Shown here: one piece after another, positions 46,427 through 62,098 of the stretch | Position numbering within the stretch: the stretch's first letter is position 1 | How the letters are laid out: each line of letters begins with the position of its first letter | Assembly (NCBI GenBank): GCA_965242865.1 | Contig: CBDETK010000013.1 | Span: 5,248,001-5,312,000, forward strand | Reading direction: 5' to 3' | Length of the DNA stretch: 64,000 bases | From: Candidatus Latescibacterota bacterium | GTDB lineage: Bacteria; Latescibacterota; UBA2968; UBA8231 | Made by a program: the position numbers and the translations under genes | Notes under the pieces: model-generated | What the model saw: the letters and a program-made list of their open reading frames with translations, nothing else | Told to the model about the DNA's origin: nothing | Databases searched by the model: none

Positions 46427-48471
46427 CAGGAGTCTTTCGCGTAGATCTTGCAGTACTGCTCGGAGTCCTTCCATGCCGAGTCGCCGTCAGGCAACCGCTC
46501 GTAAACGGCTTGATCTTCGTCCGCCAAATCCGCCAAATTCAGGCCCTTGACGTTCCTCTTTTTGACAAAGGCGTTATGGCCCAAGATCGCCTTTATCTTC
46601 GTCCAATCGTCGAAGAAGTACTCCTGCAGCAGAGGAAATATCTGGTTCTGGAACGCTTTCGATAACCCACCTATCTCATCCACCTCCAACAGGTATGTGT
46701 GTCCGATCTGGTGCTCCCGATCGAGCAGAACCGCGATGCGTTCATTCATGGTCTCGAGCATCGCCGCGCAATCAATGCCGTCAATGTCTCGGCAAATGCC
46801 CTTGTGTTCCGGGTCCGGCATCATCTCGATAAAGGCGAAGCGTCTTCGCAACGCAGTGTCGAGCAACTGAATGGAGCGGTCTGCCGTGTTCATCGTGCCA
46901 ATAATGTACAAATTGTCCGGGACGCCAAACTCATCTTGCGAATAAGGCAACGTGACGCGGGTCTCGTCCTTTTTGCCGATACGCCGGGAGTCCTCAACCA
47001 GCGTGATTAGCTCGCCGAAGATCTTCGCGATGTTGCCCCGATTTATTTCGTCAATGATCAGAACGAATCCCTCATCCCGTCGATCCTTGGCCGCTTCCAC
47101 GATGCGCTTGAAAATTCCCTCGTGGACCTCGTAGGCGAGATTGTTTTCTCCTCCCAACACGGGCCTAATGCCTTCGATGAAATCCTCGTAGGCGAAGTTC
47201 TGGTGAAAAGTCACCATTGCTATCTGGCCTTGCTCTTTCAATTCATCAAATCGTCCCTTGACCTTTTTGCGGTCTTCACGTTCAATTTCCTCCAAATTTT
47301 TGCCCTCAATAATTGCCAGCGCACGATAGACGGTGTTCCATGTCTTGCCGGTTCCCGGCGGGCCGTAGAGGATCTGGTTGAGCGGGTGTTTTGTTTCCAC
47401 AGAACCATTTTCAGGAGATGGTTCTTCTTCGATCTTTCCGCGGTTTTCCAGCCGATCGAGTAGCTCAAACGTCGAAGCATACGTTTGGCGAAATAAGTCG
47501 ATAGTGGGTTTATGGGCGCGAGAAAACCCAATCCTAGGCGCACTCGCTGATAGTGTTGCTTTTGTCTTGTTTAGCCATAACACATGTAATCGATGCTCCT
47601 CATCGAATTCGCCTTGGTAGTCGTTCTCATAGATGATTCCAATACCGCGGCCCTTCCATTGTCCGGTTCTGACGAGGATGACATCTCCAATTTTCGGTTG
47701 ATCAAGGGGATACTTCTTTTCTTCCCCGGGTCCTCCGGTGTAAACATGATTGTTCGATGTGAAATCGGCCCAATAATCGTCACCGTCGTTATACACATTT
47801 GTACTGACTTGGAAGCAAGTATCTGCATGAACAACCAACTCGCCTGACGATTGTAGATAGGCAAACAAGTTGGCCTCATAGAGATGGCACCCAGGCAATC
47901 CGGTCTTTACTCGGTCAATTAGTTGTCGATAGTGCTCCCAACTGATTTTGTTGGGAACCGAATCAAAGAAACCCAGAGAGTTCGTGTGGTCATCAATGGG
48001 GAAAAAGACTTCAGGATTGATGAGAAAGAGAACTTGTGTCAATTTCGCGGTCGCGACGTTGTCTATCCTCAGCGCACTTTCAAAATCACGGGGGTTGACC
48101 AAGCCGAATCCTGATACAGCATCCCGGAACAATCTCCAAAGCAACGATGGTTCGCCGCGAAAGAGAGCAGTGCGTGCTGGCGGCGTGGGGAATATGAACG
48201 CATTGTCGGAGTCAGGATCAAGCTCCCGACCCATGGCGAAAGTGCTGGCGATACTCGGATATATCCGCCTCCTGCTCGCCGGGGATGAGCTTCGGCTCGC
48301 AAGGGTGTAGAAAAACGACAACGGATCGATGTTCCGCAGCAACGCCGGTTCTCTGTCTCCGCTTCCCCACGGAACCGTCTTCACTCTTTCAATCAAGTAC
48401 TGTTCGCCGCCTTCGGCAATTTTCTCCGCGAGTTCCTTGAACCACGGCACCCAGTCGTATATCTCTTTCAT
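46426..48471 (-). CDS. mcrB: McrB family GTPase
   Basis: ILYGPPGTGKT, VTFHQ...YEDFIEG, IIDEINRGN, GTMNTADRS, ALRRRF. Confidence 0.93.
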   Translation of the reverse strand: MKEIYDWVPWFKELAEKIAEGGEQYLIERVKTVPWGSGDREPALLRNIDPLSFFYTLASRSSSPASRRRIYPSIASTFAMGRELDPDSDNAFIFPTPPARTALFRGEPSLLWRLFRDAVSGFGLVNPRDFESALRIDNVATAKLTQVLFLINPEVFFPIDDHTNSLGFFDSVPNKISWEHYRQLIDRVKTGLPGCHLYEANLFAYLQSSGELVVHADTCFQVSTNVYNDGDDYWADFTSNNHVYTGGPGEEKKYPLDQPKIGDVILVRTGQWKGRGIGIIYENDYQGEFDEEHRLHVLWLNKTKATLSASAPRIGFSRAHKPTIDLFRQTYASTFELLDRLENRGKIEEEPSPENGSVETKHPLNQILYGPPGTGKTWNTVYRALAIIEGKNLEEIEREDRKKVKGRFDELKEQGQIAMVTFHQNFAYEDFIEGIRPVLGGENNLAYEVHEGIFKRIVEAAKDRRDEGFVLIIDEINRGNIAKIFGELITLVEDSRRIGKKDETRVTLPYSQDEFGVPDNLYIIGTMNTADRSIQLLDTALRRRFAFIEMMPDPEHKGICRDIDGIDCAAMLETMNERIAVLLDREHQIGHTYLLEVDEIGGLSKAFQNQIFPLLQEYFFDDWTKIKAILGHNAFVKKRNVKGLNLADLADEDQAVYERLPDGDSAWKDSEQYCKIYAKDS

Positions 48472-48521: not shown

Positions 48522-49322
48522 TCACAAAGCGACTCGATACCGTCTTGGATCGTCAACATTTGGATCAACCGCGATGCGACCAGCGACCAAAGGCTGGAAA
48601 TCCTCGCCGCTCATCGGCTCGTGCTTTTTCCAGCGGCCACGCATTTCAATCAAAACGCGCTGCCTTGACGGCGCGGGCATGGGATTGACGCGCACTACTT
48701 TCGCTGTGTAGTCATTGGGGCCTTCGGCCATCGCCCGGACCAAGTCGCTCACGAGATAGCGCGGCGTCCAGCCGATCATACAGTAGTCCGTCGTCTGGAG
48801 TTGCACGGCCAGCTTGGTCGCCGGATTGGTCAATTCGAGGGTTACGTACAGCTCTTCTTCTGGCTTGAGTTCATCGATCCGCTCTTGAGCCGCTTTACTT
48901 ACCCGTTGCCAACTGTGTAGGAAGAATCGACAGGTAAAATATCCGTCGGCGTCCTTTTCGAGTTTGGGGAATACCTCGTAGGCGTCCGTGACGCGCGTGC
49001 CGCCATTGACCGATAGAATTTCGACAGGAGTCGCGTCCTCCGAGAGATCGAGGCAGCGCAGGTAATCCAAGCGGTCCGGCCTTCCCTTTGCCATGACGCG
49101 ATTCCTGAACAACGCAAACAACTCTGAGGAACGGTAATCGCTATCTAACCAAGGAAAATCGATCAATGGAGAAAATCCAATTTCCCTTTCTGCGCGTTTC
49201 GCACCGCCGATATAGCGGAAGCGATAAAGCGACGGCTCGACATCCAACCTGCCCACCGGAAACCACGGTCGGCCTTCTGTTCTTCTATCCTGCCATGCCA
49301 AGAACAAGGTTTTCGTACTCAT
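48522..49322 (-). CDS. HipS-like/HIRAN-like partner of HipA-type kinase
   Basis: LFLAWQD..WFPVGRL..YRFRY, LF..FRNR....RPD, GG.R.TD, ELTNP....AV...IGWTPRYL; AAGGAG RBS before ATG 49322. Confidence 0.72.
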   Translation of the reverse strand: MSTKTLFLAWQDRRTEGRPWFPVGRLDVEPSLYRFRYIGGAKRAEREIGFSPLIDFPWLDSDYRSSELFALFRNRVMAKGRPDRLDYLRCLDLSEDATPVEILSVNGGTRVTDAYEVFPKLEKDADGYFTCRFFLHSWQRVSKAAQERIDELKPEEELYVTLELTNPATKLAVQLQTTDYCMIGWTPRYLVSDLVRAMAEGPNDYTAKVVRVNPMPAPSRQRVLIEMRGRWKKHEPMSGEDFQPLVAGRIAVDPNVDDPRRYRVAL

Positions 49323-49932
49323 CGAAAAATCTCCTTTAGCTGGTTTATCGAGTAGTTCTCGTCCTAGCGAGGTCGCGTGATCAAAAGATGGTGCCACAAA
49401 TCCCCTCAAGCTATAATCTTGGCGTCGGAGAAGCAGACCCCAATTCTCGTGATGACGATCCGTATTGCCAATCAGCGCATCTAACACCATGTAACTCCGC
49501 AAGAATACGTTTCGCTCGGCTCGCAGCTTCAGGATTGGCAAAAACGCGGTCCATTCCTGCAAAGATATTCGCCAGCGTATGCTGCGATTGGTGGAATTTT
49601 TTCTTGGGATCGTAATCGCCAACGGTCCACCCCAATACTTGGTTGCCGTGATATAACGCCCTGCCGCCGCGGGCAAAAGATTTTGTCGTCGAACCACGCC
49701 CTCCTTCAAACCCTGCCAATTCCACCTTCGCGTGTCTAACTCCGATCACAGACGCAACTTCCGCGGCAATTTTCTCTGACCAGTGTTCCCCGGTGTCTGG
49801 ACGAGGATACTTGAAGAGCCATCTTACTTCGCCATCAGGATCGCGATACCAAAACTTCGTCTTGGTTCCCATATCTTCCCGGTCGATGACCCATTCCGGT
49901 TTCACTTCAACGATGCGATACAGGTCTGCCAT
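49323..49932 (-). pseudogene. HipA-like kinase, frameshifted and apparently C-terminally shortened
   Basis: GTKTKFW, LFKY, GEHWSEK in one frame; DALIGNTDRHHENWG and APSFDHATSLG in another after an extra T near 49494. Confidence 0.8.
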
Positions 49933-49950: not shown

Positions 49951-52900
49951 TCACGCCGCATTTTCGTAATACGGCGACGGCACTGTTGGGTAGGCGCGGA
50001 ACACGTGCCGGAATAGGTCGTCCGTCTTGGTTTTGACTTCGGCTTCCGAGTAATCACCTGTGGGTAAGCCGGTTTCGTCGCTCCACAGGAAATCATAGAT
50101 CGCAACATGGACAGCATCCCGGGTCGCTTGCTTGTCGCGCCACTGGCTCACGCGCAGCTTCTCGGCCTTCAGCGTTTTCAGCAATTTGACGGCGACTTGC
50201 TTGATCCGCTCGCGCTTCGGTGCGCTCAGGTTCGATTTCTGCAACAGATCGAAAATCGCCAGCGACTCCTCGTCCAAGCCCTCGCGGGCCGCCCGACTCT
50301 CCTCCTGATCCAGCTCCTGAACCAAATCGAGTAACTCCTCAAAGGTCTGTTCGATGGTCGGGCGATCTTTCTCGCGGTTGTAGGCCGCGACGATTGCTTC
50401 GTAGCGCTGCTGGAAATCCGTGCGTAGTGGGTTCCGCTCCAGCATGCGCTGGAGTTTCTTTTGTATGGTGTCCTTGAGTTGCTGCACGTCGGTGCGCTGG
50501 CGGGCACTGTGCCTGAACTCCTGCTTGAGCCGCTCAAAGTCAATGCGGCTGATGTCGTAGAGGGACTGTCCGGCCACTGTGCCCGGCTGCACCTCAACCG
50601 CTTCACTCGCCACCTCGTGCAACGCACGGAGGATGTCGCTGATGTCGGCCCGGTCCCGGTCCCGTTGCAGGCTCTTGTAAATGATGTCAATGGCGTCTCG
50701 GTCCGTGCGGTGGTCGTTGACAACGGAGGCGTTGATGCACGCCCGGAACTTCCTGAACACCTCGCGGCACATCACCTCAAAACGCCGGCGGGTCTCGTCG
50801 TTCTCGTTGACGACCTCCTTGCAGGAGACGATGGCGGCGTTGCGCCCAAAGCCAGTTTGGCCGATGACGTCGTCGAGCGGCACACCGCCTCTAGCGAGAA
50901 AATCGCGCATCAGCGCAATCGCCTCGGCCAAGTCGGCAAGCAGGTCCTCTTCCGGCTTGGCAGGGTCCATTGCGTGGCCTTCACCGCCCGGTTCTGCGCC
51001 GGCAAAGGTCGCCAGTGCATGACGCAGATGCTTGAGGATGCCGCAGTAATCCACGATCAGCCCGTTGTTTTTGCCTTCGTTCACTCGGTTGGCGCGGGCA
51101 ATGGCCTGCATCAGCGTGTGTGCCTTGAGCGGCTTGTCGAGGTAGAGCGTGGAGAGGCAGGGCACGTCAAAGCCAGTCAGCCACATGGCGCAGACCATGG
51201 CGATGCGGAACGGATGCGCTGGCTCCTTGAAGGCATCGTCGAGATCCATGCGCTGCTTGTTGCGGAACGCTGGCTCGTCGCGCAGGGACGCGGGCAGTTC
51301 CATGCCCTCCTTGATGAGCCGACGGTGCGGTATAATATCCAAGCCCACCTCGTCGAACTTCTCCACCTCGCCCTGTTCCTCGCTCACCACAACGGCCATG
51401 CGCGTCTCGCGCATCCATGCGATCTGCTTTTCGGTCTGTTCGTCCTGTGTCCGCTCAAGCTCGGCTTCCAGTTCATTGGCGTACTCGTTCCAATAGAACT
51501 CAATCAGCCGGTGCATCCGCACACAGGTGATCTTGTCGATGCAGATCAGCATGGCCTTGCCGGTCTCCCAAGCGGTCGAATAATGCCGCACGAAATCCCG
51601 CGCAATCTGATCGAGCCGCTGTTTAGCAGTGATGACATGGTAGTCTTGTGCAAGTGCCTGCTCCAAGCGCTGCTGCACGTCAATATCGTCGATTTCAAGC
51701 TCCTCTAATTTCGCGGCGATGCGCTCGTTCAGGTCGCCGATGGCCACCTCTAGTTTGTCGCCGCGGGCGTCGTAGTAGAGCGGCACAGTGGCCTCGTCTT
51801 CTACGGCGCGTTGGAAGTCGTAGGTGGAGACGTACTCGCCAAAGACCCGCCGCGTGAGTTCGTCGTCCTTGAACAGCGGCGTCCCGGTGAAGCCGATATA
51901 GCTGGCGTTGGGCAGGGCGGTGTGCATGTTACTCGCGAGCGTACCGTACTGAGTGCGGTGCGCTTCGTCCGAGACGACGATGAGGTCGTCGCGGTCGGTG
52001 TACGCCGCGCTGGGATTCGCGTTGAACTTCTGAATCAGCGAAAAGACGTATGCCTTGTGCTCGGTCAAAAGCTGGCTCAGGTGGCGTCCATCGGACGCTC
52101 GGCAAGGATCGCGGTCGTGATTTACTACATCACAGCCGGCGAAGGTCTTGTAGATTTGGCTGTCGAGGTCGTCGCGGTCGGTTAGCACTAGAAAGGTAAA
52201 ATTGCCGCCTAACTTGCGACGCACCTTGCGGGTGAACATCACCATGGAGTAGCTCTTGCCCGCGCCCTGCGTGTGCCAGAAAACGCCGAGTTTGCCACTG
52301 CGCGTTTTGCGCTGGCGCACGGCTTCAACGGCGCGGTTCACCCCCAAGAACTGGTGGTTGCGAGCGAGGATTTTCCTCGTCGTACCGGACGACTCGTCGA
52401 AGAGGATGAAGTTCTCCACGAGATCCATGAAATCGCGCTTGTCGCAGACGCCCTTGAGCAGCGTCTCCATATCCACGACGCCCGGTTCCTCTTCCTCCAG
52501 CCGCTTCCACTCGTGGAAATGCTCCCACTGGCTGGTGATAGAGCCGATCTTCGCCTGCTCGCCGTTGCCGAACATCACTACTGAGTTGTGGTGAAAGAGA
52601 TAGGGGATGGTGGTTTTGTAATCCGAAAAGTTTTGATCGAAAGCGGCCTTGAGGTTGCGGTGGATGTTCTTGCACTCAATGAACAGCAGGGGCAGGCCGT
52701 TGACAAAGCCCACGATGTCGGCTCGCCGGCGGTAGAGGTCGCCGCGCACCCACAACTCGCGCACACAGAGAAAGCGGTTGTTCTCCGGCGTCTCAAAGTC
52801 AAAGACCTTTAGCCGCTGCCGCACCCGCTCGTCCTTGTCGTTGTGGAAGGTAACCGGGACGCCATCGCGCAGCAGGTCGTATTGCTTGCGGTTGGCGGCG

Positions 52901-53169
52901 ACGAAAGTCTGCGAAGCGGCGGTGGCGGTAATCTGCTGCACGGCGTCGTCATAAGCGGCGTCCGGCAGGCCCGGATTTAGCGAGCGCAGCGTAGCGTGTA
53001 GATGGCGAGTCAGCACTACCTCGCGGTCGGAAGTGCGGCCCAGCAGGCTGGTTGGGCCGAAGTCTTCACTGTTGTAGGCGTAGATGGCTTCCCAGCCGAG
53101 TCGGTGTTCTAAATAATCGGCCGTGGTCTGCTGGACGAGGATGTCTTCAGTGTAGGGCGCGGGGGTCAT
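49951..53169 (-). CDS. hsdR: Type I restriction endonuclease subunit R
   Basis: RADIVGFVNGLPLLFIECK, WHTQGAGKS, DEAHRTQYG, FTGTP, LTGFD, QAIARANR; start ATG 53169. Confidence 0.95.
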   Translation of the reverse strand: MTPAPYTEDILVQQTTADYLEHRLGWEAIYAYNSEDFGPTSLLGRTSDREVVLTRHLHATLRSLNPGLPDAAYDDAVQQITATAASQTFVAANRKQYDLLRDGVPVTFHNDKDERVRQRLKVFDFETPENNRFLCVRELWVRGDLYRRRADIVGFVNGLPLLFIECKNIHRNLKAAFDQNFSDYKTTIPYLFHHNSVVMFGNGEQAKIGSITSQWEHFHEWKRLEEEEPGVVDMETLLKGVCDKRDFMDLVENFILFDESSGTTRKILARNHQFLGVNRAVEAVRQRKTRSGKLGVFWHTQGAGKSYSMVMFTRKVRRKLGGNFTFLVLTDRDDLDSQIYKTFAGCDVVNHDRDPCRASDGRHLSQLLTEHKAYVFSLIQKFNANPSAAYTDRDDLIVVSDEAHRTQYGTLASNMHTALPNASYIGFTGTPLFKDDELTRRVFGEYVSTYDFQRAVEDEATVPLYYDARGDKLEVAIGDLNERIAAKLEELEIDDIDVQQRLEQALAQDYHVITAKQRLDQIARDFVRHYSTAWETGKAMLICIDKITCVRMHRLIEFYWNEYANELEAELERTQDEQTEKQIAWMRETRMAVVVSEEQGEVEKFDEVGLDIIPHRRLIKEGMELPASLRDEPAFRNKQRMDLDDAFKEPAHPFRIAMVCAMWLTGFDVPCLSTLYLDKPLKAHTLMQAIARANRVNEGKNNGLIVDYCGILKHLRHALATFAGAEPGGEGHAMDPAKPEEDLLADLAEAIALMRDFLARGGVPLDDVIGQTGFGRNAAIVSCKEVVNENDETRRRFEVMCREVFRKFRACINASVVNDHRTDRDAIDIIYKSLQRDRDRADISDILRALHEVASEAVEVQPGTVAGQSLYDISRIDFERLKQEFRHSARQRTDVQQLKDTIQKKLQRMLERNPLRTDFQQRYEAIVAAYNREKDRPTIEQTFEELLDLVQELDQEESRAAREGLDEESLAIFDLLQKSNLSAPKRERIKQVAVKLLKTLKAEKLRVSQWRDKQATRDAVHVAIYDFLWSDETGLPTGDYSEAEVKTKTDDLFRHVFRAYPTVPSPYYENAA

Positions 53170-54448
53170 TGGGGCTGCCAAACGAGTAGGGCTTGCGATC
53201 CTGCGGCGGCACGACCTCCGGTACTTGAATACGACACAGAGGTTTTGTTGTTGGTAGGCTCTTTGTGGGACGGCCAAGATGATAGGCGGAGATAATTTCT
53301 TCCTTTATTAACCCTTTATGACCAGAACGTACAGGAGGCAGCAATCTATCGTTGATGGGATCGCTGAATCGGTCAAAAAGTGTAAAGCCCTTCTCCTCCA
53401 AAATTGTGTGTAGAATATTCCAAGTACATATTCTGAAACCTCCGACAAGGTTGTCTCCACATACAACTACTAGGCAAGCATTCTGCTTCAATGACTCCTT
53501 CACTGCGTCGAATGCATTACTCATGTCGTAAAAATAGCGATGGACAACGGCACAAAGCCGAGGTGTGCTGGTTTTTAATCGCCTCAACTCCGGTATCAAT
53601 GCGAGATCTCTCTCGATAGATTCCTGAGAAACTCGTTCCAATAATTGACCTCGTTCCGTCCCTACGAAGCGTTCCCGAAGGTTGCTCACTTTGAAGGGCA
53701 AGATACCTTCCAACAGGTATAGCTCCAGCTTGAAGTTTCGGAAGTAGTCCTGTGCGTTTATGTAAGGTGGAGAGGTTATAGCATGGGAGTGTCTCTCTAG
53801 GCCATCAAACTGACGACGAGGATCGCAGACATCAGCACAAACAAAACGAAAACGAGTGTTCTCTTGCCGATCGACACCATAGAGTGCTGAAAGCTGTTCC
53901 AATAGTTCAAGGATAATTCGGTTTGGATCGAAATGCCGGCCAGTTCTTGAGCGCCGGGCTTCCTGCGATATGAAAGGTTTTGGGCTGCGCTGATCGGCTC
54001 TGGAGCATAGTCTAACAGCGAGGGTGTAACTGAGAAGGACAGCCCAGCCTTCGGGATTGTTTCTGAGAGGAATAATCTTACTCGCGGCTCTCAATCGCTC
54101 GAACTTGTTAAGAGTACCCCGCGTAAACCAGTAGTCCTTTCTACTCCAATCAACTGGTAGAGGCTCAATGGGTCCCTCTGCCTCCGAGATCCATGCCCTG
54201 CCAAGTCTTAGAGCACGAGTGGGATCGAATCCCTTGATCTTTACTCGACAAAACAATTCTGAGATCGGATTCAGATCAACGCCGGAAACGGGAAGTCCAG
54301 CTTGATTGGCAGCAACGAGGATGGCACCCGATCCGCAGAACGGATCAAAAATAGAATCAGCCTCAGAGGCGTACCGTTGAATCAAGCGTTTGGCTAGCTT
54401 GGACACCATTTTGGCAGGGTAGCGGTCCAGTTTTGTGGGCAATCTCAT
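53147..54448 (-). CDS. DNA methyltransferase (alpha order, SPPY; probably m4C)
   Basis: YPAKM, FDPFCGSG, ITSPPY, VVCGD. Confidence 0.85.
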   Translation of the reverse strand: MRLPTKLDRYPAKMVSKLAKRLIQRYASEADSIFDPFCGSGAILVAANQAGLPVSGVDLNPISELFCRVKIKGFDPTRALRLGRAWISEAEGPIEPLPVDWSRKDYWFTRGTLNKFERLRAASKIIPLRNNPEGWAVLLSYTLAVRLCSRADQRSPKPFISQEARRSRTGRHFDPNRIILELLEQLSALYGVDRQENTRFRFVCADVCDPRRQFDGLERHSHAITSPPYINAQDYFRNFKLELYLLEGILPFKVSNLRERFVGTERGQLLERVSQESIERDLALIPELRRLKTSTPRLCAVVHRYFYDMSNAFDAVKESLKQNACLVVVCGDNLVGGFRICTWNILHTILEEKGFTLFDRFSDPINDRLLPPVRSGHKGLIKEEIISAYHLGRPTKSLPTTKPLCRIQVPEVVPPQDRKPYSFGSPNDPRALH

Positions 54449-55401
54449 TTGTCGTCAGCCGTCTTCAGGATCCAAGTCTTACCGAGTCCTCTAGAAAAGA
54501 AAGCATGATTGTGCCGTAGCGGGCCGGCATAGACGATTGCTGGTGGGTCGTCTGATTCCCTGATGTAGTTATAGACACCTAAAGTCTGTGGCTTGGTCCC
54601 GAGTGGACAGATAATCCTCGCAAAATCATCTCTCCTAGACTTTGACTTTCCGAGAACATCTATGAGAGTCTCAGTTGTAGCGTCTGGATCGAGCGCATCG
54701 ATTTTGCGAACTGCTTGTTCGTCAACCAAGGATAGAAGGTCACGGTTGAACTGCTCGGTTCTTCCCGTCCAGCTTGGTTGGTATGGAGGATCTGGCACCG
54801 CTAGGGTCGTCTTCATCGGCTGGATGTGTTCATAGACCGCCAACGCCCGATCACCTTCATACCCCAAGAACATCATCAGGTGAACGGGCCTACTGAGATC
54901 TGGGCACGCAGAAAAACCGGGGATTTGCTGGAGGGAAGCGAGTCCGAATGAGAGAGGAATGTATTGAGAAACTAGATAATCACCTGGCTCACTATACACG
55001 ATGTATAGTCGGCTCCAAAGATTATAGTCATCAAGCCATCTCAGCATCATAAGCAGATGCCGTTTTGTAAAAACGGATATATCAATTACGATAGCACTAT
55101 AGTCTGCACGATCTATAGTACGCCGAAGATGCTGCATGTTATCGCGAAGGCTACTGACCGCATCCGATTCGGTGAACTGGAGAACCGTCACCCGAGAAGC
55201 CATATTCTGAAACTCGGACTCCATGAGGCGATGGTTCCCTTCACGGATAGGGTTAGTGTCATCGTAGTGGAAGAAAACTACTTCGTCCAGCGACCAACTC
55301 TGGACATGGGACAGTAATCCCTTACATCGGTCTTCGTGACTGGAACATGTAACAAGAACTGCTCGATCTGGTAAGTCTCCTAATCTAAGTTGTCGTTTCA
55401 C
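54445..55401 (-). CDS. Hypothetical protein, possible divergent Rossmann/CARF-like fold
   Basis: SHEDR, IDISVFTK, YSEPGDY, FLGYEGDR, PLGTKP motifs; 4-nt overlaps with both neighbours. Confidence 0.6.
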   Translation of the reverse strand: MKRQLRLGDLPDRAVLVTCSSHEDRCKGLLSHVQSWSLDEVVFFHYDDTNPIREGNHRLMESEFQNMASRVTVLQFTESDAVSSLRDNMQHLRRTIDRADYSAIVIDISVFTKRHLLMMLRWLDDYNLWSRLYIVYSEPGDYLVSQYIPLSFGLASLQQIPGFSACPDLSRPVHLMMFLGYEGDRALAVYEHIQPMKTTLAVPDPPYQPSWTGRTEQFNRDLLSLVDEQAVRKIDALDPDATTETLIDVLGKSKSRRDDFARIICPLGTKPQTLGVYNYIRESDDPPAIVYAGPLRHNHAFFSRGLGKTWILKTADDK

Positions 55402-57683
55402 TCGCGGCCTCCCGGTGGAAAGGGTAGATTGCCTTGCACCTCTCTGGGTTTCGCTACTCCGGGTTTCTCTACAGTGTTCTTTAATTCTCGAATCGCTTGA
55501 GCCCTCTTACCAGGCTGAAGTAAACGCTGCAAGTGCCTGCATTTTACGTTAGTTCTCCAGCGGAGTCGTGGACTGATCTGGAGAACAGGCGCGTAAACTC
55601 GACAGATATTGAATTCCGTGGGTTGAGGATCGGACCCGTGTTTCGGCTTGAATGCAGGACGCCCCTCCTTAGTCTGAAACACTCCTTCTCTCTCCCCGAC
55701 TGCGAGGATGCGCTTCAGCATCTTCATTGTGTCTTCTTCCAACATCTCAGGGTCCTTTATCGTTAGACGCGCCGCTTCCGGTTCGCTTGTATGCTTGAGT
55801 AATTTATGCCTCAAACAATCACCGAGGTCTAGTAGGAAATACTTAAGCTCTTCGCCATGTCGCTCTACATTTTTGCTAAGTGTAGTAAGGTTGTGTTGAG
55901 AGACGATATGGACAGCCTGGGATTGTTGCTCTGGTGGGAGAATAAGAACGCCTTGAGGAGGAGGATCAGCTTTGAATGTAAGATGATAGCCCACACTCAA
56001 AAACTCTTGAAAATAGCGGATTACTCCAGATCCCAAAAGTGCAAGTTCTTTGAACCCTGCGAACCGTTTCTCAGCATGGCGTCCGGGCCTTCCAATAAGG
56101 ACCCGATAGGTCGCTGCTTCACCATAGTACGTTTTCTTTTCGCGTTGCTTTTCGTTTGGTAAATTCTCAAATTCCTCAAGAGTGATCTTATGGAGCTTTA
56201 CCACTTCTGCTAACCACAAGGACTCATCGACTTCGGAATCGCGGAAACGAGGAAGGAGTTTATCCACATCAACCGACTGAGAGCTTTCAAGCTTAGCCAT
56301 GTTTGATACGATATGGCTCAGTAGTTCATAATAGGCTTTTCGTTCAGCCGGGACTTCGACGTTGTAAACTAATGGCACTCTTGTATAGTCGTGAATCTCT
56401 TGTAGATCCTGACCTGTCGTGGTTCCCGGTATATCTTCACTAGCAAGTTTCTTGGCAATTTTGATTGAGATATGCGGAGGACCAAGTTTGAGCAGACTAT
56501 TGACTATTCGCCTCTGATAGGGGAAGAGATTCTCATACTCGTCAAGCAAAACAACGAACATCGACTTTTCGAGCGACGGAGTGTGGTGGCGTACTAAAGA
56601 TATGACACGTTTTAGTTGCTCCAGATCAAGAGTAGCTATCGGGACCGAGGCGGAGTCCCCATAAATGAACCTACGGCGAATGAAATCAGCTAGCTTTTTG
56701 TGCATATCTGAGAGTTTGATTTGCAGTTCGACGAACGAGATAGCCTTATGCCCATTGGAATCGAACAGCAGTTCGTCCGCCGCTTCGCAGAAGTTCCGTT
56801 CGACAAGTCGGTCATGATTGATCAAGGCGTGCTCAACGCAGTACACCAGTTCCGATAACAGACTCTCCGTTATCTGTAGATACAGTTCTTGTGCAGCCAC
56901 GTCTCTGAGGACGGCGGTGTGAATAGTTGAATCTAGGTGTTCGTCCTCAAGAGGGACTCCCGCATTGCAGATTGCCCCGCGGGTGAGCTTCAAGTAAAAA
57001 CCGAAGCGTTGAGGTGCGTCTTCTTCGCCGGGGCTCCGTTGTAGAAAATTACGAGCGCGTAAAGACAGCAAGAGCATTGACTTACCTGTACCTCTCGATC
57101 CTTCGAGAATGCACGGTTTCATGTCCTCAAGTGCTCCGACTTTTATCGCGTCTGGTAAAGCGAAGGTCTTTGCGTAGAGTTCGGGCTGATACTCGAAGAA
57201 TTCAGCTCTAAGATGGCGGAAGGGATTTTTTGAATTGGGAGTAAAAGCCTCGGCAACCAAAGACGAGGTTGTCTGTTCGCTGAATAGTACGTCGCAGATG
57301 CCTTCCACTAACTTCCTTAGGGATTCTTGGTCGCTTTGTATCAGCTTCCCATACACCTTAAGACCAAGTATAGGTGGTATCGGTGTATCGTCTAGACGGA
57401 CGACAATACATTTCCCACCAGATTGAGAAACTTGGTTCCAAACTGCGGCATCGATTTCAAGGTTCTGCCAATTCGCGCCAGCGGTGTGCTTGGAGAAGAG
57501 AATAATGACTACAGCGGCATCTGCGATTCCATCGTTCATAAAGGCAATGGCGTTGTCCCCAAGACTAAGGTCTTGGGTGTCGATCTTAGTCTCATGGCCG
57601 GCATTGCGCAGATGCTCTGCCAACTCTGTTGCAATTTCCTCATCTGGGGTGGCATGTGAAATGAAGATATGCTTGATACTCAT
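55398..57683 (-). CDS. TIR domain + ORC/CDC6-like (STAND-related) NTPase
   Basis: IFISHA...W..LE (TIR); NPF..RAE, GSRGTGKS (Walker A), LLDEYEN (Walker B), SG.IRYF.E; AAGGAG RBS. Confidence 0.78.
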   Translation of the reverse strand: MSIKHIFISHATPDEEIATELAEHLRNAGHETKIDTQDLSLGDNAIAFMNDGIADAAVVIILFSKHTAGANWQNLEIDAAVWNQVSQSGGKCIVVRLDDTPIPPILGLKVYGKLIQSDQESLRKLVEGICDVLFSEQTTSSLVAEAFTPNSKNPFRHLRAEFFEYQPELYAKTFALPDAIKVGALEDMKPCILEGSRGTGKSMLLLSLRARNFLQRSPGEEDAPQRFGFYLKLTRGAICNAGVPLEDEHLDSTIHTAVLRDVAAQELYLQITESLLSELVYCVEHALINHDRLVERNFCEAADELLFDSNGHKAISFVELQIKLSDMHKKLADFIRRRFIYGDSASVPIATLDLEQLKRVISLVRHHTPSLEKSMFVVLLDEYENLFPYQRRIVNSLLKLGPPHISIKIAKKLASEDIPGTTTGQDLQEIHDYTRVPLVYNVEVPAERKAYYELLSHIVSNMAKLESSQSVDVDKLLPRFRDSEVDESLWLAEVVKLHKITLEEFENLPNEKQREKKTYYGEAATYRVLIGRPGRHAEKRFAGFKELALLGSGVIRYFQEFLSVGYHLTFKADPPPQGVLILPPEQQSQAVHIVSQHNLTTLSKNVERHGEELKYFLLDLGDCLRHKLLKHTSEPEAARLTIKDPEMLEEDTMKMLKRILAVGEREGVFQTKEGRPAFKPKHGSDPQPTEFNICRVYAPVLQISPRLRWRTNVKCRHLQRLLQPGKRAQAIRELKNTVEKPGVAKPREVQGNLPFPPGGRE

Positions 57684-57779: not shown

Positions 57780-58952
57780 TCATCGGACGCGACGCTTTTG
57801 ATTCAACGTTTTTTCTGCGCATAACGAACCGAATCCGGCTACCAAACGCGGCAGAAGCAGGTCGCGGGCTTGGGTGAGTTGTAATATTCCCTGCTTCAAA
57901 CAACGCACTTGCCGAATAATATCGCCAGCCAATCTCCGAAACTCGAAAACCAAAGACTCCGCTGGGACGATAATATCCATCTGACGAAATCTTCCCTTGC
58001 TTATTTCGGGATACGTCGTACCCTTCGCGTTGCTTCGGATCTCGGAGACCCGACTCATCAGGTTAAAAAGCAGGAACATCCTCATCGCCTCATCGTGAGG
58101 AATGATATTGATAAATCCTTGATTAGTACAGGATTCAACATCCATAAGCGCGAAAAACCCCACGGATGCCCGGCTCGTCATCAGGATAGTGTTCGCCGGA
58201 ACCAGTTGTGCAGACGATTCACGAAGTCCTTTCTCGGTAATCTTGCGTTCCGAGTCAAGTAGGACCAAGCAGTCGTTTCTGGTAACGTCTGTTGGAACGA
58301 CCCAAGTGATGTCGCCTTCCCAATACTCTGCCACTCTGGTGGATGGAGTGCCACCTCCAACAGTATCACATACGTCGGCTATTTTTTTCTTTTCCCACCC
58401 CTCCGGCACACCGTCCTCGACCTTGATGTGCTCATGGCCGGGGAAGCGAAGGTGAACAAACCATTCCTTATAGAGCAGCCGCGCCGCCTGCTCCAGTAAC
58501 TGAATCCGCCGCCGATTGTTCTCTATCAGGTCGTCGTAAGCGGAAAGGATGGAGGCAACGCGCTTTTGCTCGCATAGAACAGGCACTTCAAGCGAAAGCG
58601 TGTCTAATACATTGCGATTCAGCGTCGGAACAGACACGCCGCCGTTGAAGCGTTCAAGATGTAGAGTTTGGAGTTTATAGTAAACGAACTGTGGGTCATT
58701 GCCCTTGAAGTCTCTGACCCAGAGTACCGTATTGTGAGGCCAGTATGGTTGGTTGATGTACTGAACTCGTCCTAGAGTGCCGGACCTTCCTGTCACAACC
58801 CCCGGAGGTTCCACCTTGGCTTCACTGTGAAAACCGATCACACTGTGGGATCCGAGAACCGGAACATCGCCATCGTCCATCTGGGACTTAGGCAGGTCGA
58901 ACCCTCTCTGTAGAGTCACAAAGTCCTTAAATAGAAGACGCTTCCTGTTCAT
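57780..58952 (-). CDS. hsdS: Type I RM specificity subunit S
   Basis: Two TRDs; EQKRVASILSAYDDLIENNRRRIQLLE, VPEGWE, GGTPST, RDLLLPRL. Confidence 0.93.
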   Translation of the reverse strand: MNRKRLLFKDFVTLQRGFDLPKSQMDDGDVPVLGSHSVIGFHSEAKVEPPGVVTGRSGTLGRVQYINQPYWPHNTVLWVRDFKGNDPQFVYYKLQTLHLERFNGGVSVPTLNRNVLDTLSLEVPVLCEQKRVASILSAYDDLIENNRRRIQLLEQAARLLYKEWFVHLRFPGHEHIKVEDGVPEGWEKKKIADVCDTVGGGTPSTRVAEYWEGDITWVVPTDVTRNDCLVLLDSERKITEKGLRESSAQLVPANTILMTSRASVGFFALMDVESCTNQGFINIIPHDEAMRMFLLFNLMSRVSEIRSNAKGTTYPEISKGRFRQMDIIVPAESLVFEFRRLAGDIIRQVRCLKQGILQLTQARDLLLPRLVAGFGSLCAEKTLNQKRRVR

Positions 58953-59001
58953 TCTCTGGCCTCGATCTGTTTGTACAAAACCCACCTGCAGCACTGTTTG
59001 C

Positions 59002-59193
59002 CTACTCCTCGTACATCTTAGGATCCGGTTCAATCTCAATGACCTCGCCTTTTTCCATAACCACTACCCCGGTCTTGTGCTGATGGGCAACCTTATGTGC
59101 GCGTCTGGCGGCCCGGTGTAGCGCGTTAAGGACATCCTGCGTTTCCTTATCGTCATATTGCGAGGCAGGGGTATCTCGGTTTTGTTCAGTCAC
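59002..59193 (-). CDS. Small hypothetical protein, putative partner of zeta-like ATPase
   Basis: ALHRAARRA..VA......VVV...G.V pattern; 4-nt overlap with upstream gene. Confidence 0.6.
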   Translation of the reverse strand: MTEQNRDTPASQYDDKETQDVLNALHRAARRAHKVAHQHKTGVVVMEKGEVIEIEPDPKMYEE

Positions 59194-59714
59194 AGGTTTT
59201 CTCCCTTATCAATCAATGTAGGAATACGGCCGCTATTATCAAACCGCTGCCAATAATCGACGATGGGGCGGTACGTATTCTGAAAATTCTGCAACCCGCT
59301 CGCAAAGCGGCGGCGAATAACATCCGGTGGAACGTAGTGGCCGCCTTGCCTCACGCGCAATTCAACCCGCTTGATCGCTTCTTCCGGCGTTGCCAGCGAC
59401 AGAAATATCAGCTTGACCGCATACCCGTCGCCGCGCCAGCGCGGGATCATCCGAGCATAGCCGAGACCAGACAAGGTCGTTTCAAAGGCAAAACTTCTTC
59501 GCTGCTGCACGTGATTTTTAATCTCTTCCAACATCAGCCGACCGGCGCGAAAAAGAGCGGCGTCCGGCTGAAAGGGGGACAAACCCGTTGCGATCAAGTC
59601 GGCGTTGACAAAGGCGGGACATTGCGCCTCGTGCGGCAAATGCTCCAGTGCAAAGGTCGTTTTCCCCGCACCATTGGGTCCGGCGATGATAATGATTTTC
59701 CGGTCCGCGTCCAT
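59190..59714 (-). CDS. Zeta-toxin-like P-loop ATPase
   Basis: IAGPNGAGKTTF, FVNADLIA, FAFETTLSG, RVRQGGH, FDNS. Confidence 0.85.
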   Translation of the reverse strand: MDADRKIIIIAGPNGAGKTTFALEHLPHEAQCPAFVNADLIATGLSPFQPDAALFRAGRLMLEEIKNHVQQRRSFAFETTLSGLGYARMIPRWRGDGYAVKLIFLSLATPEEAIKRVELRVRQGGHYVPPDVIRRRFASGLQNFQNTYRPIVDYWQRFDNSGRIPTLIDKGENL

Positions 59715-59718
59715 CGCC

Positions 59719-61806
59719 TCATATCCCCAACGTCTTGAAGTTATGCTTGATGGTTGCCGCCAGCGTCGCCGCCTCTGCGTCAAGCCCGTCCAGTTCCTCG
59801 TGAATTTCGCGCAGAGCCTCCCTAAAGTCGAAGTCCTCGTCCTCCTCTTCGGGCGCGATCCCCACGTAGCGACCCGGAGTCAAGCTCCAATCGTTGGCCT
59901 CAATCTCGGCGCGATCCACCAGCTTAACCAGCCCTTCCACATCGCGCAGTTCAGCGTCTGGAAAACGCTCGGTGAGCCAGTGGGCCTCCTGATAGAAGTA
60001 GCGCACCTGCTTGAGTTGCTCAACGGCGCACTGGCGGGCCTCGTCGGCGGCCCTACAGGCGCGAGTGACGCCGCGGGCGTCATAGACGGCACTGGACTTG
60101 GCGTCGCATTCCTCCGCGCAAATCTCGATGAGGTGGGTAGCCAGCTTGTACAGGTGCTCGGTCTGTCTGGCAAGATCGCGGCTACGCTCGGCCAGCGAGG
60201 CGAGGCCATCAACCCTCGGCTTCATCGTGCCGCTGTTAATTTTCTGCCCGGCCCAAGCCTCCCGCTGCGCGGAGATTGCCTTTTGGAAAGCGTCCCCATC
60301 CGCCTCAAACTCGCGCAGGGCGTTCGCCAACTTCTCGGACGCCTCGGCATGGGCGTCTTCTGCATCCAGCGTATTGAGAAAGGGAACCAGCACATCCCGT
60401 AGGCTGTTGAGCGAGATTAGAAAATTCGGCAGGCCAATGCTAAAACATCCCTTCCCCTCGTCGAGAGCACGGTCGCAATAGCGCGACACCAACTCGACAA
60501 AACGCTCCCTCTCGCCCCGGTAGAGCCAGACGATAGCCAGCAAGTTCTGCTGCTGTTCGGGGCTGAAGTCGCAGATTTTGCGCGTCACTTGGCGGTACAC
60601 AGTGCGGGCGTCGATCATCAGCACCTTGTCGCGGTGCGCCTCGGGCTTGCTGCGGTTGAAAAACCACAGCTCGCACGGCACGGTGCGGGTGTAGAAGAAA
60701 TTGTTGCGAATGGCGATCATCGCGTCCACATCGCCGCTCTCCACCAGTTTCCGCCGCACCTGCGCCTCGCTACCACCAGCACTAGACGCCTGCGACGACA
60801 TCACAAAGCCGGCCCGGCCCCGCTCGTTCAGATAGCTGTAGAAGTAGCTAATCCAGACGTAGTTGCCGTTGCTGACTTTGCCCTGCTTGTTGACGCCAGG
60901 CAGGCCAAACGGCAAGCGCGGATCAACCTTCACCTTGTCGGCGTCAATCTCATCCACATTAAAGGGCGGATTGGCCATGAGGTAGTCGGCCCGCCCCACC
61001 AGTTCGTGCGGATCCTCATAGTACGTAATGGCCTGCTGGATGTCGCCTTCGAGTCCGTGGACAGCGAGATTCATCTTGGCGAGGTGGATGGTGGTGGCGT
61101 TTTTCTCCAAGCCGCGAAACGTGAGCCGCTCGGTGGGACTTTGGCCGTGCTCCTCTACGGTGCGGGCACTCTGTACGAACATGCCACCGGAACCACACGC
61201 CGGGTCCAGCACCGTGCCGCGCTGCGGGTCGAGCACATGGGCGATTAGCGACACCAGCGACACGGGCGTGAAAAACTCCCCGCCGTCGTGGGCCTTCTGA
61301 TCGGCGAACTGCGTCAGGAAGTACTCGTAGATGCGGCCGAAGACATCGCCGGAGACCTGCTTCAACTCGTCCGGGTTGAGCGTCCGCAGGAGTTGGCCGA
61401 GGACGGCACTGTCCAATTCCCGGTATTCGCTCTTGGGCAGAACGCCGCGCAGGTTATCGTAGTCATCTTCAATGGACTCCATGGCCGCGATGATAGCCCC
61501 GGCCCGATCCGCTCCATCGGGCAAGGCGACGAGGTAGTCAAACTGCGCTTCGGGCCGGAGAAAAATAGCACTCTTTTGCGAGAAATCTCCTTTGGTAAGT
61601 CCCCGCCTTATGCCGTCGCGAATGGGCAGATTATCCTCGATGCCGGGCTTGACGGCCAGATAGCGGCTGTAGGCGTGACGTAGAAAGACCAGTCCCATCA
61701 CCGGCAAAAAGTACTCGTTGCTGGCGTGACTGGTATTGGCGCGGAGCGTATCTGCCGCGCTCCAGAGGCGTCTTTCAATAGCTTCAATATGTTCGAGTTG
61801 CGACAT
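59719..61806 (-). CDS. hsdM: Type I RM methyltransferase subunit M
   Basis: LWSAADTLR, GEFFTP, LDPACGSGGMF, ANPPFN, WSLTPGRYVG. Confidence 0.95.
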   Translation of the reverse strand: MSQLEHIEAIERRLWSAADTLRANTSHASNEYFLPVMGLVFLRHAYSRYLAVKPGIEDNLPIRDGIRRGLTKGDFSQKSAIFLRPEAQFDYLVALPDGADRAGAIIAAMESIEDDYDNLRGVLPKSEYRELDSAVLGQLLRTLNPDELKQVSGDVFGRIYEYFLTQFADQKAHDGGEFFTPVSLVSLIAHVLDPQRGTVLDPACGSGGMFVQSARTVEEHGQSPTERLTFRGLEKNATTIHLAKMNLAVHGLEGDIQQAITYYEDPHELVGRADYLMANPPFNVDEIDADKVKVDPRLPFGLPGVNKQGKVSNGNYVWISYFYSYLNERGRAGFVMSSQASSAGGSEAQVRRKLVESGDVDAMIAIRNNFFYTRTVPCELWFFNRSKPEAHRDKVLMIDARTVYRQVTRKICDFSPEQQQNLLAIVWLYRGERERFVELVSRYCDRALDEGKGCFSIGLPNFLISLNSLRDVLVPFLNTLDAEDAHAEASEKLANALREFEADGDAFQKAISAQREAWAGQKINSGTMKPRVDGLASLAERSRDLARQTEHLYKLATHLIEICAEECDAKSSAVYDARGVTRACRAADEARQCAVEQLKQVRYFYQEAHWLTERFPDAELRDVEGLVKLVDRAEIEANDWSLTPGRYVGIAPEEEDEDFDFREALREIHEELDGLDAEAATLAATIKHNFKTLGI

Positions 61807-61829
61807 ACCCATCCCGCAGTAAAAGGGGC

Positions 61830-61862
61830 TTACATGCTCCCCGCAATCAGATACCTGATCAT
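61830..61862 (-). pseudogene. vapC remnant (first ~5 codons)
   Basis: TGATG coupling after vapB gives MIRYLIAGSM*, matching the usual VapC start M..Y(L/M)LDTN only for the first codons. Confidence 0.45.
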
Positions 61863-62098
61863 CACAGTTTTTCCCGCTGTCCATCGGCTGGCTGACCCCG
61901 TGCAGACATAAAATCATCTGAAACACCGGGGCCGTTGAACCACTCAGCCCAACTCTCGCCAGCAGGCGTGATAACGCGCTTTGACCCTATCGCGACGATA
62001 TCGACCTCTCGCACCGATTCCGGCAGCTCGACGGCTTTGGGCAGCCGCACCGCTTGGCTCTTGTTGCTCATAAAAACTTTCGTGTGTGCTGTTGCCAT
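61862..62098 (-). CDS. vapB: VapB (AbrB/MazE-type) antitoxin
   Basis: VFMSNKSQAVRLPKAV..P..V..V.I...G..RVITP...SW..WF....VSDDFM..R.QP. Confidence 0.92.
   Translation of the reverse strand: MATAHTKVFMSNKSQAVRLPKAVELPESVREVDIVAIGSKRVITPAGESWAEWFNGPGVSDDFMSARGQPADGQREKL

Follow-up and report, generated by a model that had tools for sequence, protein, structure and literature searches.

Control of TIR NADases by CARF or SAVED sensors has precedent in Cat1 and TIR-SAVED. To our knowledge, every CARF or SAVED sensor whose working is understood takes its signal from a nucleotide cyclase dedicated to it, either Cas10 or a CD-NTase. In the methylation-associated defence system (MADS), N6-methyladenine (m6A) separates self from phage, and the system is an eight-gene mad1-mad8 operon that includes MAD3/MAD4 and MAD7/MAD8 ATPase-nuclease modules (PMC13662399). 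Here we describe a three-gene locus of a Candidatus Latescibacterota bacterium, located in a 64,000-nucleotide stretch of contig CBDETK010000013.1 (positions 5,248,001 to 5,312,000), referred to below as the window. The locus encodes a TIR domain fused to an ORC/Cdc6-like AAA+ ATPase, a protein predicted to consist of two tandem CARF domains, and an amino-methyltransferase. It is a member of a widespread family in which a tandem CARF protein, an AAA+ ATPase and a DNA methylase occur together without a cyclase. According to the list of open reading frames (ORFs), the three genes are:

55398-57683, minus strand: gene 1, TIR-ATPase, 761 amino acids
54445-55401, minus strand: gene 2, tandem CARF protein, 318 amino acids
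53147-54448, minus strand: gene 3, amino-methyltransferase, 433 amino acids

An earlier note, made from the letters of this DNA alone, had described three co-oriented genes with 4-nt start/stop overlaps, richer in AT than the host and placed between hsdS and hsdR of a type I restriction-modification (R-M) operon. The coordinates and junction letters are exact: the junctions between genes 1, 2 and 3 read GTGA and ATGA, both being 4-nt overlaps. The base composition agrees as well: the guanine-cytosine (GC) content is 0.594 in the window as a whole and 0.596 in each of hsdR and hsdM, but 0.486 in the triplet. All quoted motifs (WQNLE, Walker A/B, DPFCGSG, TSPPY and the loops of gene 2) are found in the translations.

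Gene 1 contains two assigned modules, and its C-terminal part is a helical/winged-helix region:

57306-57668, minus strand: TIR domain, residues 6-126 (Pfam TIR_2, E 1.3e-20)
55560-57227, minus strand: AAA+ ATPase module, residues 153-708 (Pfam PF24389 ORC-CDC6-like, E 9.7e-49)

The protein belongs to PF24389, since it scores above the gathering threshold (167 bits, cut-off 27) over nearly the whole profile (positions 1-566 of 571) in the Pfam scan, which found no NACHT or NB-ARC domain. The putative catalytic glutamate of the TIR domain, Glu76, sits in WQNLE; in the alignment, 20 of 21 full-length homologues share it with the window protein, and the one without it is the copy of Nitrosopumilus (locus L029). 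Walker A is GSRGTGKS (195-202), with an arginine within the P-loop, Walker B is LLDEYE (379-384; Asp381/Glu382), and a helical insert lies between the two at about residues 253-340. G195, R197, G198, G200, K201, D381 and E382 are invariant in the 45 sequences aligned. The TIR glutamate and the intact Walker motifs pointed out from the single sequence are thus both kept across relatives.

The AlphaFold model of gene 1 (predicted local distance difference test, pLDDT, 85) was compared with known folds using VIA, which is also the source of the fold matches of gene 2 given below. The TIR domain matches other TIR folds at Z 14-16, including that of SARM1 (Z 15.2, root-mean-square deviation (rmsd) 2.1, 123 residues aligned); the CRISPR-associated Cat1 TIR gives Z 13.8 and rmsd 2.0. 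The ATPase part matches AAA+ proteins of the ORC/Cdc6 clade, among them PAB2304 (2qen_A; Z 13.1, 325 aligned, rmsd 4.8), Cdc6/Orc1 (2qby_B; Z 12.3, 259 aligned), SSO1545, ORC, MuB, TnsC and BrxC (Z 10.8, 277 aligned); PAB2304, SSO1545, Cdc6/Orc1, ORC and BrxC fall at Z 10.8-13.1. In the whole-chain Foldseek comparison the top match is plant RPP1 (E 3e-5), which superimposes with an rmsd of 24-25. A search of PDB sequences with the ATPase profile returned nothing below E 0.2.

For gene 2, which the earlier note could describe only as Rossmann/CARF-like, PADLOC models and fold matches now specify a tandem CARF. It matches nine CARF6 models, the best of them, CARF6--CARF_CARF_CARF (PDLC01917), over its full length with an E value of 1e-26; no Pfam or NCBIfam model matches it. 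The CARF6 name reportedly goes back to Makarova et al. 2020 NAR. The predicted structure (pLDDT 91, predicted template modelling score 0.91) has two tandem Rossmann-like domains, and its closest fold is Can1 (6sce_A; Z 14.2, rmsd 3.5, 232 aligned), a two-CARF nuclease that cyclic tetra-adenylate (cA4) switches on, with both domains covered. Single CARF domains of Can2, Card1, Csa3 and Csm6 match at Z 10-12, and SAVED domains at Z of about 8 over 190-200 residues. From the tandem Rossmann-like model and these Can1, CARF and SAVED matches, we take gene 2 to be a CARF pseudo-dimer without an effector domain.

Four loops of gene 2 are conserved, TCSSHExRC (18-26), DISVFTKRH (107-115), FLGYEGDR (178-185) and PLGTKPQT (266-273); such loops are conserved in both halves across 35 sequences from systems linked to TIR and, as described below, to PRTase-CE. 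Fold, conserved loops and profile match thus place gene 2 in the CARF superfamily, CARF6 clade, with ligand binding as a prediction. Its relatives number 450 at E <= 1e-3 in a database clustered at 90%, all of about 316 residues and unnamed. Two fused forms, one of 747 residues (PF24389 plus CARF) and one of 616, are single sequences and were set aside as probable broken or merged gene calls. When the model was compared with the PDB by Foldseek, the C-terminal domains of NKCC1/KCC, FabG4 and cysteine synthase came up with an rmsd of 15-18, and were rejected as sharing merely a two-Rossmann arrangement; the sole meaningful match was a local one to the CARF domain of Csm6 (rmsd 4.3). The CARF profile found nothing below E 0.2 among PDB sequences, and the ESM Atlas yielded only clusters of "hypothetical protein".

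Gene 3 is a SAM (S-adenosylmethionine)-dependent amino-methyltransferase in which motif I, DPFCGSG (35-41), precedes motif IV, TSPPY (225-229). Both motifs are invariant in 24 sequences, supporting a catalytically intact methylase as judged from sequence. Pfam N6_N4_Mtase (PF01555) matches the motif I region alone (E 4e-12) and PADLOC MTase_II gives E 8.5e-22. The motifs fit the SAM-binding FxGxG and the catalytic (D/N/S)PP(Y/F) of N6A/N4C amino-methyltransferases; DNA as the substrate of gene 3, and the base that it would methylate, are both predictions. The tail from about residue 395 (the last 40 or so residues) is not conserved and runs into the start of hsdR (53147-53277).

The three genes form a conserved and self-contained unit. 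One genome per species was scanned, which gave 29 further loci in Latescibacterota, Nitrospirales, Acidobacteriota, Verrucomicrobiota, Planctomycetota, Spirochaetia, Methanoregula and Nitrosopumilus; gene states were assigned by local tblastn and locus ORFs called by a simple longest-ORF rule. In 26 of the 29 loci all three genes can be recognised, whole or broken, and their order is the same. Gene order and overlap are kept from bacteria to archaea at identities down to 27-37%, and overlapping stop/start junctions recur among the relatives. Clustering of all flanking ORFs of the 29 loci revealed no fourth shared gene.

All three genes are unbroken and collinear in 19 loci, and two more, L019 and L023, are cut by contig ends and are consistent with the triplet. 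The TIR-ATPase gene is the one most often broken, which we read as a sign of its cost: it is absent from L004 and L010, interrupted by an insertion in L005, L009 and L012, and split into two frames by a frameshift in L015. The methylase is missing from L029 and lies in two frames in L008, where the TIR-ATPase and CARF genes are intact. Apparent frameshifts in metagenome-assembled genomes are possibly assembly errors. The insertions in L005 (5543-7246) and L012 (5258-6892) are ISL3-family transposases, located at different positions of the TIR-ATPase gene in two Vicinamibacterales genomes; that of L009 measures 0.9 kb. The Nitrosopumilus locus L029 (5774-8918, 9168-10733), which has neither the aligned TIR glutamate nor a methylase, is adjoined on the opposite strand by an AlwI-like restriction endonuclease.

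The earlier note had proposed a survey for relatives in which the N-terminal effector is swapped, and such relatives exist, with PRTase-CE or varied ATPase domains in place of the N-terminal TIR. A profile of the ATPase alone (A3) retrieved 1832 representative proteins at E <= 1e-3. Among the best 150 of these, from which architectures were read, the N-terminus carries either TIR or a helical domain of about 200 residues without a family assignment; others have no extra domain at all and measure about 630-680 residues. P0297 has its TIR at the C-terminus. P0302, P0313 and P0323 have long C-terminal extensions with repeats that match no family and that look, from their sequence, like TIR/deoxyribosyltransferase domains. 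In P0348 (1023 residues), we observed a C-terminal AdoHcyase_NAD-like domain, i.e. an NAD-binding domain like that of S-adenosylhomocysteine hydrolase (PF00670, E 7e-11).

With two P-loop/Walker B peptide patterns, more distant ATPases were found in at least 37 metagenome loci, which make up a sample rather than a full census; these loci were analysed by local hidden Markov models, clustering and Pfam/PADLOC scans. All counts that follow are among the loci listed. A PRTase-CE gene lies directly upstream of the ATPase in 34 of the 35 loci with room for it, the exception, L030, having a C-terminally extended ATPase; all 34 members of the PRTase-CE cluster match PF24390, and the cluster also matches PADLOC PRTase_III-A. 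Directly downstream of the ATPase, a CARF6-type ORF is present in 26 of 26 loci with at least 900 bp of room, and CARF ORFs of PRTase-linked loci match CARF6 models at E 1.7e-78 and 8.7e-35. Of the 17 loci covered for at least 1200 bp on either side, all 17 have a DNA methylase as neighbour; among all 37 the count is 28. Four families fill the methylase slot: gamma-type N6_Mtase/Eco57I (20 of 21 cluster members), C5 DNA_methylase (L032, L049), beta-type N6_N4_Mtase (L044, L050) and the SPPY family of the window (L030, L031, L060 and a Sinorhizobium meliloti plasmid). Because DNA methylation is what the four families have in common, DNA is the probable target of the methylase.

On the S. meliloti plasmid NZ_CP085526.1, which is conjugative, thyX stands with a methylase of the window family and with PRTase-CE, ATPase and CARF genes; apart from thyX and the methylase, these are annotated as hypothetical. 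This plasmid was the only informative hit in a search of plasmids and phages that gave three plasmid and two phage matches, all at 22-24% identity. A gene resembling the flavin-dependent thymidylate synthase ThyX/Thy1 recurs beside PRTase-type relatives, a possible tie to pyrimidine metabolism or base modification: L031:5716-6342 by Pfam, 578-1489 of the S. meliloti plasmid (L069) by its thyX annotation, and L033:70-666 and L049:1859-2593 by BLAST clustering. In two unrelated loci, one of TIR type (L001:10214-11722) and one of PRTase type (L059:8778-10577), a protein with SLFN_AlbA_2, HATPase_c_4 and Fic-like_C domains is encoded directly downstream. Across the family, the ATPase-CARF pair is the invariant core, while the poison module and the methylase family are interchangeable.

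This invariant adjacency, a complex prediction and the existence of a fused PADLOC model together suggest that the ATPase and the CARF protein probably form a complex. When ATPase residues 150-745 were modelled with the CARF protein, the interface score ipSAE was 0.64 (runs 0.60, 0.64 and 0.69), while the best of three controls gave 0.00. Among solved complexes, 58 of 80 reach the mark applied to this score, as do 2 of 110 mismatched pairs; these counts hold only roughly here, since alignments of our own were used. Between runs, at least 72% of contacts are shared, and the partner pLDDT is at least 79. On the ATPase side, the predicted interface involves residues 229-242, 266-278 and 318-342 in the helical insert between Walker A and Walker B; on the CARF side, it involves two helices (80-89, 118-125) and the PGF loop 158-171, which is conserved. 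The AAA part of the fused PADLOC model, CARF6--CARF_STK_AAA, weakly matches variant ATPases (E 1e-5 to 1e-6).

The reading that we favour, and to which we lend about as much belief as doubt, is that the triplet is an anti-phage module, self-contained and horizontally mobile, that came by chance to lie inside a type I R-M operon, with the methylase as self-mark, the ATPase-CARF pair as switch and the TIR domain as an NADase. The methyltransferase would methylate host DNA and thereby mark it as self. The ORC/Cdc6-like ATPase and the tandem CARF protein would act as one sensor/switch complex, to which the ATPase would contribute DNA contact and ATP-driven assembly, and the CARF pseudo-dimer a single asymmetric pocket, where a nucleotide-like ligand would bind and gate the switch. 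Upon detection of unmethylated foreign DNA, of the CARF ligand or of both, the ATPase would assemble and bring the N-terminal TIR domains together. These would then hydrolyse nicotinamide adenine dinucleotide (NAD+) and the infected cell would stop (abortive infection), a part that PRTase-CE or other modules could play instead. That the TIR domain would be an effector and not a signal maker is suggested by its being replaceable and by the frequent inactivation of the TIR-ATPase gene.

What the computation itself delivers are the domain identities, the conserved linkage, the interchangeability of poison module and methylase family, and a predicted ATPase-CARF interface. Several points weigh against the self-marking scheme. 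Firstly, every functional step in it is drawn from sequence, predicted structure and gene neighbourhood. Secondly, it would need a reader of methylation status. As methylase families are swapped, any such reader would have to re-adapt, or else the methylase is the DNA-recognition subunit itself, as by analogy with type I/III R-M and BREX (bacteriophage exclusion) systems it may be. Thirdly, a scheme based on methylation does not account for the CARF protein or its ligand. Fourthly, L008 has an apparently frameshifted methylase beside an intact TIR-ATPase and CARF gene which, if real, argues against lethality of methylase loss. Fifthly, the target of the window's methylase family would be DNA and not RNA by prediction, and its motif I region is also like that of tRNA m2G (N2-methylguanosine) methyltransferases. 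Finally, the score of the complex prediction is the model's own confidence, which supports binding between ATPase and CARF protein without showing it.

The locus could also be a signal relay, and this is the strongest of the alternatives, though an unlikely one in our judgement: upon infection the TIR domain, or PRTase-CE in relatives, would make a nucleotide-derived messenger, the tandem CARF would be its receptor, and the CARF-bound ATPase or the methylase would execute, for example by binding and blocking unmethylated DNA. TIR domains can be signal synthases in Thoeris, ThsB is among the TIR fold matches (Z 12.4), and the operon contains a CARF sensor with no other candidate signal maker. 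Such a relay sits poorly with the CARF pocket motifs, which are conserved between TIR-linked and PRTase-linked systems (n=35) although the products of the two enzymes would differ. It also sits poorly with the ATPase variants whose N-terminal domain is helical and non-enzymatic in appearance, or missing, and with the lack of any linked classical downstream effector (nuclease, pore or protease). Since the CARF loops are conserved across TIR-linked and PRTase-linked systems, their sequences argue for one common ligand and not for the product of a particular poison enzyme.

Such a common ligand might come from elsewhere in the cell. A type III CRISPR-Cas system or a cyclic-oligonucleotide-based antiphage signalling system (CBASS) would make cyclic oligoadenylates or other cyclic nucleotides in trans, and the CARF protein would sense these and fire the TIR-ATPase. 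This idea fits the CARF fold, which has its nearest matches in the cA4 sensors Can1, Can2 and Card1, and also the contents of the window's own genome: a full Csm1-type Cas10 (536 bits, G000:C13:4777206-4779509) about 470 kb from the window, and three SMODS genes more than 1 Mb away. In another host, a Cmr2-like ORF (G005:C1:1286326-1287726) lies about 4 kb from the start of L005 and about 11 kb from its CARF gene. We nevertheless consider this ancillary role improbable. No cas10 or CD-NTase was found among the recurrent ORF clusters within 8 kb on either side of the 29 genome loci and 7 kb on either side of the 37 metagenome loci (66 loci in all), flanking ORFs seen at a single locus falling outside the annotated recurrent clusters. 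Cas10 scores above the curated cut-off in 8 of the 29 host genomes (Csm1 in 2, Cmr2 in 6), some of which are incomplete. The obligatory methylase would moreover have no explanation.

A ligand could also be supplied by the methylase, in that the tandem CARF would bind S-adenosylhomocysteine (SAH) or SAM handed over locally by it and so read methylase turnover. On this reading, SAM consumption and SAH release are all that the four methylase families share. The alarm would be either a burst of turnover on unmethylated DNA or a collapse of SAM caused by phage SAM-degrading enzymes, and would let the ATPase assemble the TIR NADase. We regard this as a long shot; the AdoHcyase_NAD-like domain of P0348 is a hint, and the sole pointer to SAM/SAH chemistry.

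We are similarly doubtful that the locus is a selfish addiction module, a toxin/antidote pair of the R-M type composed of TIR-ATPase/CARF and methylase, which would chiefly secure its own maintenance and for which phage defence would be incidental or absent. A patchy distribution across phyla, a GC content below that of the host, presence on the conjugative S. meliloti plasmid and frequent inactivation of the TIR-ATPase gene would all suit it, but these features are equally typical of genuine defence systems, and the window copy lies in a defence island (type I R-M, McrBC and a PDC-M03-like gene). Lastly, the idea that an orphan methylase, a TIR protein and a hypothetical gene are neighbours by mere chance has next to nothing in its favour, being ruled out as far as computation goes by an order and overlap conserved from bacteria to archaea and by a four-part logic repeated in distant relatives.

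The defence island that surrounds the triplet comprises a complete type I R-M set, McrBC and the PDC-M03-like gene. Pfam matches on both neighbours agree with the placement of the triplet between hsdS (upstream) and hsdR (downstream):

59719-61926, minus strand: hsdM (N6_Mtase E 1.5e-74, HsdM_N; PADLOC MTase_I E 7e-256)
59190-59783, minus strand: zeta-toxin-like/AAA_33 kinase ORF between hsdM and hsdS (Zeta_toxin E 8e-10)
57780-59039, minus strand: hsdS (Methylase_S E 1e-37; PADLOC Specificity_I E 1e-103)
49951-53277, minus strand: hsdR (HSDR_N, SWI2_SNF2, T1RH-like_C; PADLOC REase_I E 1e-156)
48522-49709, minus strand: PDC-M03-like gene, 395 amino acids (B part of PADLOC PDC-M03, full length, E 5e-74)
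46426-48471, minus strand: McrB-like AAA_5 GTPase, 681 amino acids, downstream of hsdR
45143-46474, minus strand: McrC (PF10117 E 5e-82)

This setting is peculiar to the window and its closest relative. Homologues of the window's hsd genes flank the triplet in 1 of the 29 other loci, L001, where they are remnants, so the nesting inside a type I R-M operon, which the earlier note had made part of the system, does not belong to it. With the R-M context not recurring, nothing suggests that the system senses an anti-RM protein, as that note had further proposed, or that it guards the R-M operon. By its sequence, the true hsdR start is probably the ATG at 53169, which overlaps the 3' end of the methylase gene by 23 nt, and not the TTG of the long ORF. 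The zeta-toxin-like ORF overlaps the 3' end of hsdM by 65 nt and is a second insertion in the type I R-M operon; a copy with 87% identity lies upstream of the L001 triplet. The PDC-M03-like ORF begins with a short piece resembling PDC-M03A/HipA_C and also has a weak HIRAN match. In L001 (11792-13479), the HipA-like part is an ORF of its own (295 residues, HipA_C E 1e-14), and given this separate ORF the gene in the window may represent either a fusion or a pair that was truncated.

In line with the earlier note, no named PADLOC, Pfam or NCBIfam system covers the triplet. A comparison with PD-Lambda-5 had been suggested, and no model of that system is among all 10 PADLOC matches of gene 1, all 10 of gene 2 or the best 25 of 40 of gene 3. 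The component families are already catalogued, in the PADLOC CARF6 models and in Pfam PF24389 and PF24390, whose consecutive accessions suggest that both were built from one described neighbourhood. In the literature searched, no description of the ATPase, CARF and methylase combination was found; Makarova 2020 NAR, Burroughs 2015 NAR or Burroughs & Aravind 2020 J Bacteriol may well hold one, and the combination has possibly been predicted computationally already. Should the triplet serve in defence, two separate immune logics would meet in one small module, epigenetic self-marking and NAD+ depletion gated by a nucleotide sensor, and the system would point to CARF ligands of a new class. The modularity of the family, with TIR, PRTase-CE and other poison modules and four methylase families, offers experimental handles, and the copy on a plasmid of the culturable S. 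meliloti a tractable entry point.

Several described systems share individual parts with the triplet. Thoeris also has a bacterial TIR protein in a small defence operon; membership was rejected, as no ThsA-like partner (SIR2/SLOG or Macro) is present, ThsB_TIR scores 21.1 bits against a cut-off of 21.2, and NCBIfam Thoeris models are far under their cut-offs (type III ThcB4, 24 bits against 220). CBASS was rejected too, there being no CD-NTase (SMODS) in the operon or in the conserved flanking clusters, as was an ancillary CARF effector of type III CRISPR-Cas, given the lack of genomic association with cas10 in the recurrent flank clusters. The PRTase-CE of distant relatives is of the same Pfam family, PF24390, as the effectors of type III-A retrons, but no reverse transcriptase was seen and the window copy uses TIR. 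TIR-NLR and Avs-type STAND (signal transduction ATPases with numerous domains) proteins resemble gene 1 in having an N-terminal TIR, an NTPase switch and a C-terminal sensor region; the NTPase of gene 1 is, in contrast, an ORC/Cdc6-clade AAA+ (PF24389), and two further genes are obligatory. The CARF6 clade (PDLC01911-01923), whose models are matched alike by gene 2 and by the distant CARF ORFs, exists in PADLOC as protein models only, and no system definition with ATPase, CARF and methylase was matched.

The closest parallels lie elsewhere. BREX and MADS, methylation-based defences that do without a classical restriction enzyme, couple like the triplet a DNA methylase to an ATPase of the ORC/Cdc6 clade. 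Of the PADLOC models, mad8 is a weak match to the ATPase (E 2.7e-4, and 3.7e-8 with a variant), and mad2 matches the gamma-type methylases of the relatives at E 7e-27 and the window proteins weakly (E 1.8e-6). MADS membership was rejected on these weak and partial mad8 and mad2 matches, with no homologues of mad1 or mad3-7, and membership of BREX, in which a PglZ phosphatase accompanies a PglX methylase and a BrxC ATPase, because PglZ, BrxL, BrxA and BrxB are absent from the window region and the conserved flanks and the likeness to BrxC is at fold level only. Both systems, moreover, are without the TIR or PRTase poison module and the CARF sensor that this family has. In Cat1 and TIR-SAVED, as would be the case here, a CARF- or SAVED-type sensor controls assembly of a TIR NADase; the TIR of TIR-SAVED (7qqk) matches that of gene 1 at Z 12.2, and the tandem CARF resembles SAVED pseudo-dimers. 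The triplet differs from them in having sensor and TIR on separate proteins bridged by an AAA+ ATPase, no linked Cas10 or CD-NTase, and an obligatory DNA methylase. By analogy, its function would thus be most like that of Cat1/TIR-SAVED combined with an epigenetic discrimination of the BREX/MADS kind.

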